A stretch of 64,000 bases of DNA from a virus: positions 81,036 through 145,035 of the IMG/VR virus record IMGVR_UViG_3300045988_171725. One strand, given 5' to 3'. Under the pieces are notes generated by a model. It did no database searches and was not told the DNA's origin. It saw only the letters and a list, made by a program, of their open reading frames with translations. Position numbers and translations under genes: made by a program. Below are positions 43,685 through 44,006 of this stretch, piece by piece (the first letter of the stretch is position 1; each line of letters begins with the position of its first letter).

Positions 43685-44006
43685 CACAAAAGCAGTGCAG
43701 CCGACTTTGACTCGGCTTACGTTGGAGCGTTACCAGCATTGCCTGCCATTATGCCGCATATACCTTCATACGGCGGGGATCAATTGCTCGGTTTTACAAC
43801 GTGGGTTTGTCCACTAGTTGATCAGACTAAGCGTTAAGCTACGTTATCAAAGAATATATAGGCACCGTAGGATGTACTCTCCAGTCTTACACTCTGCGGT
43901 ATGTGATTAAACAGTTCTGATGGGTAGGAACAGTGTTGCATACGAAAACCTTTGAATAACATTGTCGTGGAGTAACCACTCTAACATATAGGAGGCTATA
44001 AAAGCA
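43685..44006 (+). ncRNA. Candidate IscB omega-RNA (HEARO-class) for the downstream IscB
   Basis: 322-nt ORF-free tract immediately 5' of an IscB ORF, which is the canonical omega-RNA position. Hairpins include 43699-43717 (AGCCGA/TCGGCT), GATCAA/TTGATC enclosing GTGG/CCAC, and ACCGTA/TGCGGT with a G-U pair that only works on the + strand. Confidence 0.5.

Follow-up and report, generated by a model that had tools for sequence, protein, structure and literature searches.

The 322 nt at positions 43685-44006, between the stop codon of an upstream ORF (43049-43684) and the ATG of the first of two IscB genes (IscB-1, start at 44007), are a composite: they begin with the final 64 nt of a tRNA gene and continue with a spacer of 30 nt, an omega-RNA scaffold of the HEARO family (201 nt) and a linker of 27 nt. 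Taking all observations together, we regard it as highly probable that the tRNA-Gln gene is followed by a guide taken from the flanking DNA and by the HEARO scaffold, which is the left edge of an IscB-only unit of the IS200/IS605 type, that this unit, inserted in a phage tRNA array, would spread by RNA-guided homing, and that the copy studied here is probably not autonomous. All positions refer to the window, the whole 64-kb stretch of phage DNA that was analysed. The parts are as follows.

43049..43684, + strand: free-standing HNH endonuclease ORF of 211 aa, context outside the element (PHROGs phrog_3377 'HNH endonuclease', 1.1e-37)
43675..43748, + strand: tRNA-Gln(UUG) with encoded CCA (ARAGORN; Rfam tRNA)
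43749..43762, + strand: phage backbone spacer from the tRNA 3' end to the inferred guide, 100% identical to unoccupied relatives
~43763..43778, + strand: inferred 16-nt guide CCTTCATACGGCGGGG, phage flank directly 5' of the scaffold
43779..43979, + strand: omega-RNA scaffold (HEARO, RF02033), also the left edge of the mobile unit (Rfam match, covariation)
43980..44006, + strand: linker with a Shine-Dalgarno sequence AGGAGG (43990-43995), 5' of the IscB-1 ATG (read from the sequence)
44007..45267, + strand: IscB-1 ORF with an in-frame TAA (Pfam RRXRR 2.7e-66 plus HNH; OgeuIscB 7UTN/7XHT at E ~4e-40)

A first-pass annotation of this DNA had described the tract as ORF-free, which is correct apart from trivial frames of 40-42 aa, the longest having 42 aa. 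It had called the upstream gene an HNH gene, an assignment supported by the PHROGs match; Pfam detects no HNH domain in this ORF. The last 10 nt of the ORF are overlapped by the tRNA-Gln gene, and two independent methods, ARAGORN and Rfam, agree on the cloverleaf with its anticodon (RF00005 at 43675-43745, 46.3 bits against a gathering score of 29, E 7e-8, in a sensitive scan of 43000-47200). An equivalent tRNA-Gln adjoins the same site in related phages where the site is unoccupied (L096, L097 and L105), and in L097 the HNH ORF is also found upstream of it. The single omega-RNA of 322 nt that had been proposed, extending from the HNH stop codon to the IscB ATG and having a guide that sits at the HNH gene's 3' end or just within it, would fit an ORF-free tract with hairpins, but the first quarter of the tract is instead a tRNA gene. 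As 43675-43748 is a canonical tRNA-Gln that IscB-free relatives carry as well, as the HEARO model starts only at 43779, and as the homology of both the element and the backbone breaks at that same position, we consider the 322-nt architecture very improbable.

The closeness of tRNA and omega-RNA is a property of this locus. In none of the 93 other IscB loci does a plus-strand tRNA lie within the 100 nt that precede the HEARO, so the adjacency belongs to the insertion site and not to the family, and we rejected it as a family trait. Two of these loci, L002 and L004, also lie in tRNA arrays and share no flank homology with the site in the window.

HEARO is the RNA that is now called the IscB omega-RNA (PMC10055086, PMC13565253). 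A search with the HEARO model, one of the checks suggested with the first-pass annotation, gave in the Rfam scan of the whole window a match to RF02033 at 43779-43979 on the plus strand that is well above the gathering score (106 bits versus 83, E 8e-21) and covers the full model, positions 1-211 of 211. The 3' end of the scaffold lies 27 nt before the ATG at 44007, on the same strand as the IscB ORF. From IMG/VR we gathered 80 relatives of IscB-1 and 13 of IscB-2. A comparison with the upstream regions of IscB homologues, which had likewise been suggested, found the same RNA in the same place in all 20 IscB-1 relatives that were scanned, and HEARO is also present in 10 of the 13 IscB-2 relatives; the matches end about 27-80 nt ahead of the respective ATG. 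The central claim of an omega-RNA directly upstream of IscB copy 1, on the plus strand, is thus borne out by the RF02033 match, by its presence in relatives and by covariation.

For the covariation analysis, 31 phage omega-RNAs were aligned with MAFFT, an alignment that was not fitted to structure, and the Rfam structure was projected onto it from the row of the window. Standard pairs occupy 83.1% of the cells, compared to 34-42% after a shift of the partners by 1-3 columns, which also lowers the covariation score from 0.46 to 0.06-0.10, and double-sided changes occur at 42 of the 60 pairs; 0 of 500 shuffles reached the observed pairing or covariation values. Covariation support for the HEARO fold at 43779-43979 is therefore strong. 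The three helices that had been named by eye all exist in the sequence at their reported positions, and they fare differently. GATCAA/TTGATC is stem P1 of the HEARO fold (helix 1, 43779-43786/43815-43822) and is well supported, being paired in 91.8% of cases with double-sided changes at 5 of its 8 pairs, and the GTGG/CCAC that it encloses has modest support. AGCCGA/TCGGCT (43699-43704/43712-43717) does not belong to the omega-RNA, as it is the anticodon stem of the tRNA-Gln(UUG), with the loop CUUUGAC. ACCGTA/TGCGGT (43864-69/43895-900) is paired in 54.8% of cases among the 31 omega-RNAs, no better than shuffled columns, and it overlaps and competes with the covarying HEARO helices 8 and 9.

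Thermodynamic stability turned out to be uninformative. The real sequence of 43749-44006 folds no more stably than its dinucleotide shuffles do (minimum free energy, z = +0.54 on the plus strand and 0.02 on the minus strand), and we dropped stability as evidence for an RNA. This means that helices that look clean by eye are not evidence in themselves, and that the case for a structure beyond chance rests on the covariance-model match and the covariation, which cover only 43779-43979. The z-scores of about 0, together with the lack of a dedicated promoter or terminator flanking the region, are what could be said for the view that the iscB mRNA simply has an untranslated leader here, or that the region is a spacer between tRNAs, with an incidental likeness to HEARO. 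Against such a reading are the E value of 8e-21, the compensatory changes at 42 of 60 pairs, a nucleotide conservation far above that of the adjoining ORF and the absence of the region from unoccupied spacers, and we find it scarcely credible.

The scaffold itself shows no decay. At its core (43824-43979) it shares 92-97.5% identity with relatives whose ORFs reach 76-84%, and the linker reaches 85-100% identity to close relatives. The score of 106 bits is below the 120-146 bits of the closest relatives because the inner hairpins of P1 have diverged. Overall, this omega-RNA, detected with the curated model of its own family, is ordinary among the known members, and the locus leaves existing knowledge of omega-RNAs unchanged.

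Three independent comparisons agree on 43779 as the place where the mobile unit begins on its left. The eight closest copies of the element become similar at the P1 sequence (A/G)TCAA at 43779/80, and the upstream flanks are unrelated and differ from copy to copy. Four contigs share the phage backbone of the window, as judged by the neighbouring kinase/HD protein (82-97% identity). Three of them, L095, L096 and L097, have tRNA-Gln/tRNA-Trp or Gln-Trp-Pro-Thr arrays without IscB (in L095 the order is Gln-Trp-Pro-Thr), and their homology to the window breaks at 43779 and picks up again at 45257. The window is itself the unoccupied allele for the element of another relative, L016, just upstream of the helicase gene. 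With a slash for each junction, the window reads ...TTGGAGG / ACGAAGTAGATGGCT at that site and the occupied allele of L016 reads ...TTGGAGG / ATCAAC...(element)...AAAATTTT / ATGAAGCAGATGGCT, so that the element edges are flank / ATCAAC...TTTT / ATGAAG. From sequence comparison, this pair shows the family architecture, in which the flank is followed by the scaffold from P1 onwards, then by iscB and then by a right end that abuts ATGAAG, with the iscB stop codon (TGA) inside this motif. Many other relatives end in ...TTTATGAA, after which their flanks diverge.

With the unit edge at 43779, the guide would be the flank directly 5' of it. Assuming a length of 16 nt by analogy with OgeuIscB, we infer that the guide is CCTTCATACGGCGGGG, at about 43763-43778. 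The mobile unit thus begins with the 5' edge of the scaffold, and the guide comes from the flanking DNA, which differs from copy to copy; it lies between the CCA end of the tRNA and P1, some 80 nt further downstream than the 3' end of the HNH gene where it had been expected. The stretch 43746-43779 is 100% identical to L095 6275-6308, and the 14 nt at 43749-43762 would form the 5' leader of the omega-RNA precursor.

A look for the guide in insertion-free relatives had been proposed as well, and it gave five unoccupied target sites. The exact 16-mer occurs in eight contigs in the IMG/VR scan; three are unrelated GC-rich sequences and five are related phages (L099, L100, L101, L104 and L105). 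In all five, tRNA-Gln ends with its CCA 14 nt before the 16-mer and AAGAAGGAAG comes after it, and all five sites are unoccupied, with no IscB in the tRNA-Gln/tRNA-Trp spacer. No occupied allele of the tRNA-Gln site other than that of the window was found by the 16-mer scan of IMG/VR. The unoccupied allele is a perfect protospacer plus AAGAAG, which is one base off the family's ATGAA(A/G) and is, from its position and likeness, a candidate target-adjacent motif. The motif of GstIscB is TTCAT (PMC10055086), of which ATGAA is the reverse complement. At the L016 site, the window (39815-39845, with the helicase gene at 39845) and L095 read ACGAAG where the occupied L016/L094 (IMGVR_UViG_3300045988_179398) reads ATGAAG; this may be a motif-escape substitution. 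We also considered whether the spacer of the unoccupied phages is a relic of an older IscB 3' end, from a likeness (GGCAATTxCTxCG) seen by eye. This idea was rejected, as blastn gave nothing significant and Smith-Waterman alignments were no better than shuffles (137-493 of 500 shuffles were as good).

We propose the following sequence of events for RNA-guided homing of the element. The 30 nt between tRNA and scaffold are too short for a promoter, so transcription would enter from the co-oriented upstream HNH/tRNA-Gln unit; the only promoter-like site there is a weak one at 43616-43644. The omega-RNA precursor would probably be cut free by tRNA processing, after which the scaffold would bind IscB and the guide would pair with the identical 16-mer in a co-infecting related phage without the insert. 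The RuvC and HNH domains would then cut the unoccupied site next to AAGAAG, and recombinational repair from the occupied genome would copy the element in. Homing of this kind into co-infecting phages is described in a review, where it is named non-restorative homing (PMC13565253); RNA-guided homing by 'non-restorative transposon homing' is the term that we would apply here.

The copy in the window carries damage at two places. Its right end is given by one further feature.

45229..45256, + strand: right junction of 28 nt; element homology stops at 45228 and backbone resumes at 45257

IscB-1 has an in-frame TAA at 44832-44834, where relatives usually have GAA (Glu); nine relatives have a sense codon at this position, usually Glu within ...NV(C/H/Y)ET(F/Y)GY.... 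The TAA differs from GAA by one G-to-T change, which may be a genuine nonsense mutation or may have arisen in sequencing. Stop-codon recoding is unlikely, since the standard code leaves the window's other ORFs open and the sole Gln tRNA has the anticodon UUG. IscB-1 is probably a pseudogene. In addition, its C-terminal tail departs from relatives after 45228, and the right end of about 65 nt (...TTTT / ATGAA) that the complete relatives L015, L016, L020 and L021 have is absent. Behind the target, 62-63 nt of phage backbone (AAGAAGG...GCAATTA) are missing and replaced. Compared with an active IscB element of the IS200/IS605 type, this copy thus has neither an intact frame nor both of its ends. 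Since the right end and the 62-63 nt of backbone with the presumed motif are gone, the insertion is not clean and present-day activity is doubtful; since the scaffold core is undecayed, the damage would be recent or in part an assembly artefact. From the nonsense codon and the deletion of the right end with the adjacent motif, we conclude that the window copy is probably no longer autonomous and that it is probably a recently disabled homing element.

A second IscB gene follows at once, and it raises the question of whether the omega-RNA has another partner.

45386..46703, + strand: IscB-2 unit with an intact ORF at 45415-46662 (415 aa); homology to L001, L004 and L011 begins at 45386-45392
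45322..45385, + strand: tRNA-Trp(CCA) pseudogene (Rfam tRNA, 29.6 bits, model positions 8-63 only)

IscB-2 is full length, has intact RuvC and HNH motifs and matches OgeuIscB at about 1e-40. It is 44% identical to IscB-1, and the two genes are on the same strand, 148 nt apart. Homology of IscB-2 to its relatives starts only 29 nt before its ATG, which leaves a 5' UTR of 29 nt. There is no second HEARO in the 64-kb window, and around IscB-2 none was found even at E<=10, so IscB-2 is without a cognate guide in cis; its relatives L001-L011 carry an omega-RNA. The 45257-45385 stretch is ordinary backbone, common to IscB-free relatives. The IscB-2 unit takes the place of 58 nt of backbone, among them the final 11 nt of tRNA-Trp, whose 3' acceptor strand and CCA have given way to the 5' UTR of the unit; intact tRNA-Trp genes are found at the homologous place in L094, L095 and L097. 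Two candidates for a guide RNA of IscB-2 were rejected. One was a cryptic omega-RNA upstream of the gene, as GCTACGTT at about 45275-45295 resembles the HEARO core; it gives no HEARO match. The other was a tRNA-like fragment at 45329-45385, which is the tRNA-Trp cut at the insertion junction.

If the omega-RNA of IscB-1 were still in use, either IscB-2 or another phage IscB would load it in trans, or the TAA of IscB-1 would be an assembly error or be read through, and the locus would still home. A single G-to-T change is all that this nonsense codon amounts to, the scaffold core has stayed 92-97.5% identical to relatives with intact ORFs, and right beside it, on the same strand and 148 nt away, stands a full-length IscB-2 in which the RuvC and HNH motifs are present and which lacks its own HEARO in all 64 kb. 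The two proteins, however, are only 44% identical, IscB-2-type omega-RNAs visibly differ in P1 and in the 3' multi-helix domain, which leaves cross-loading putative, the right end and the adjacent motif are lost, and the conservation of the core may reflect nothing but the recency of the damage. We therefore think continued use unlikely. In a particular form of it, to which we give slightly less credence still, two damaged neighbours would complement each other: IscB-2 would use omega-RNA-1 in trans, with a 5' end supplied by tRNA-Gln maturation, and would home into the tRNA-Gln/tRNA-Trp spacer of competing phages. If true, this would be a natural counterpart of engineered tRNA-gRNA arrays. 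We favour the reading of a disabled copy of an RNA-guided homing element.

The wider setting is that of a phage with distant cultured relatives; the nearest are Clostridioides phages of ~130 kb, whose helicase is only 29% identical. Megablast against INPHARED gave no match, and no record with exactly the IscB-2 protein was found. Downstream of the IscB-2 unit, the phage tRNA array continues.

46775..46851, + strand: tRNA-Pro(UGG)
46919..46995, + strand: tRNA-Thr(UGU)

The HNH ORF at 43049-43684 and a GIY-YIG endonuclease ORF with HTH domains at 48040-48924 flank the tRNA array with both IscB units, which indicates that selfish nuclease genes cluster around phage tRNA genes. A hairpin of 13 bp at 47066-47113, which resembles a terminator and has a T tail, overlaps a perfect sigma-70 promoter (TTGACA-17-TATAAT, with extended TG); the kinase/HD gene at 47135 follows shortly after. 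L095 becomes homologous to the window precisely at the CCA end of tRNA-Gln (L095 6275, window 43746); upstream of it L095 differs, and its own tRNA-Gln is 185 nt away. This suggests that mosaic boundaries in this phage family fall at the ends of tRNA genes. Rfam tRNA matches of 118 and 137 nt in L003 (2179-2296 and 6785-6921) and a tRNA-Gln of 85 nt in L095 (6006-6090) point to phage tRNA genes with insertions or introns. In related phage loci, RAGATH-18 RNAs, which are the guide RNA class of IS607 TnpB, and a type-P5 twister ribozyme are found a few kb from the IscB elements (L009 5560-5620, L056 684-747 and L083 6778-6827).

For annotation, the single 322-nt tract is better replaced by three features, namely a tRNA-Gln gene, a guide derived from the flank and a HEARO omega-RNA, and the two IscB genes should be labelled, IscB-1 as disrupted by a nonsense codon and IscB-2 as lacking a guide RNA. 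The value of the locus is in its paired occupied and unoccupied alleles and in the tandem of a broken and a guide-less IscB. It provides a natural guide-target pair, with the occupied allele in the window and five unoccupied alleles in related phages, and a reciprocal pair in which the window serves as the unoccupied allele for the element of a relative. RNA-guided homing between phages has been proposed in the literature and rests mostly on bacterial and plasmid experiments. Such allele pairs are raw material with which the spread of IscB between co-infecting phages by RNA-guided homing can be tested.

Among known systems, the closest is the HEARO/OgeuIscB omega-RNA (RF02033; PDB 7UTN, 7XHT). 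The likeness covers the full-length model match, the place 5' of an RRXRR plus HNH ORF on the same strand, the same multi-helix fold with covariation and a guide position 5' of P1, drawn from flanking DNA. The RNA in the window differs in that it is carried by an uncultured phage of roughly the 130-kb class, and, compared to the HEARO of its closest relatives, in its diverged inner hairpins of P1 and its disrupted cognate IscB. Meers et al. described a HEARO/omega-RNA upstream of iscB that is bounded by the transposon end, has a flank-derived guide and is transcribed from a start outside the element; they reported that cleavage of the donor joint drives retention of the element and found tnpA nearby for only about 1.5% of iscB genes (PMC10055086). 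With the ISGst5-type IscB elements of Geobacillus stearothermophilus (PMC10055086), the present unit shares the make-up of a non-autonomous, IscB-only unit of the IS200/IS605 type in which one transposon end adjoins the omega-RNA, the guide is read from the flank and, as we infer here, transcription comes from outside in the orientation of the upstream gene. The motif ATGAA (the reverse complement of TTCAT) at the other end is seen in the relatives L015, L016, L020 and L021. Unlike in ISGst5, the motif-bearing end of the window copy is deleted, the candidate motif at the unoccupied site is AAGAAG, and for the phage copies, which are not known to have a TnpA, homing from one co-infecting phage to another is a more likely route of spread than the restoration of a site after excision.

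Free-standing homing endonucleases in phage tRNA regions, such as SegB of T4 (PMC13565253), offer a further parallel. They too are selfish nuclease genes in a phage tRNA array, where the window also has HNH and GIY-YIG genes of the homing type, and, like them, the element would be expected to cleave the insert-free allele of a co-infecting relative, into which repair would then copy it. The difference is that the element would recognise its target by an RNA guide and not by protein, so that self and non-self would be told apart simply by the presence of the insert. Polycistronic tRNA-gRNA designs were reportedly developed for Cas9 by Xie et al. in 2015. The arrangement in the window is natural and probably accidental, is absent from the other 93 IscB loci and has 14 nt between the CCA end and the inferred guide, all of which sets it apart from the engineered arrays. 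What it has in common with them is a tRNA immediately upstream of a guide RNA, where processing of the RNase P/Z type could define the 5' region.
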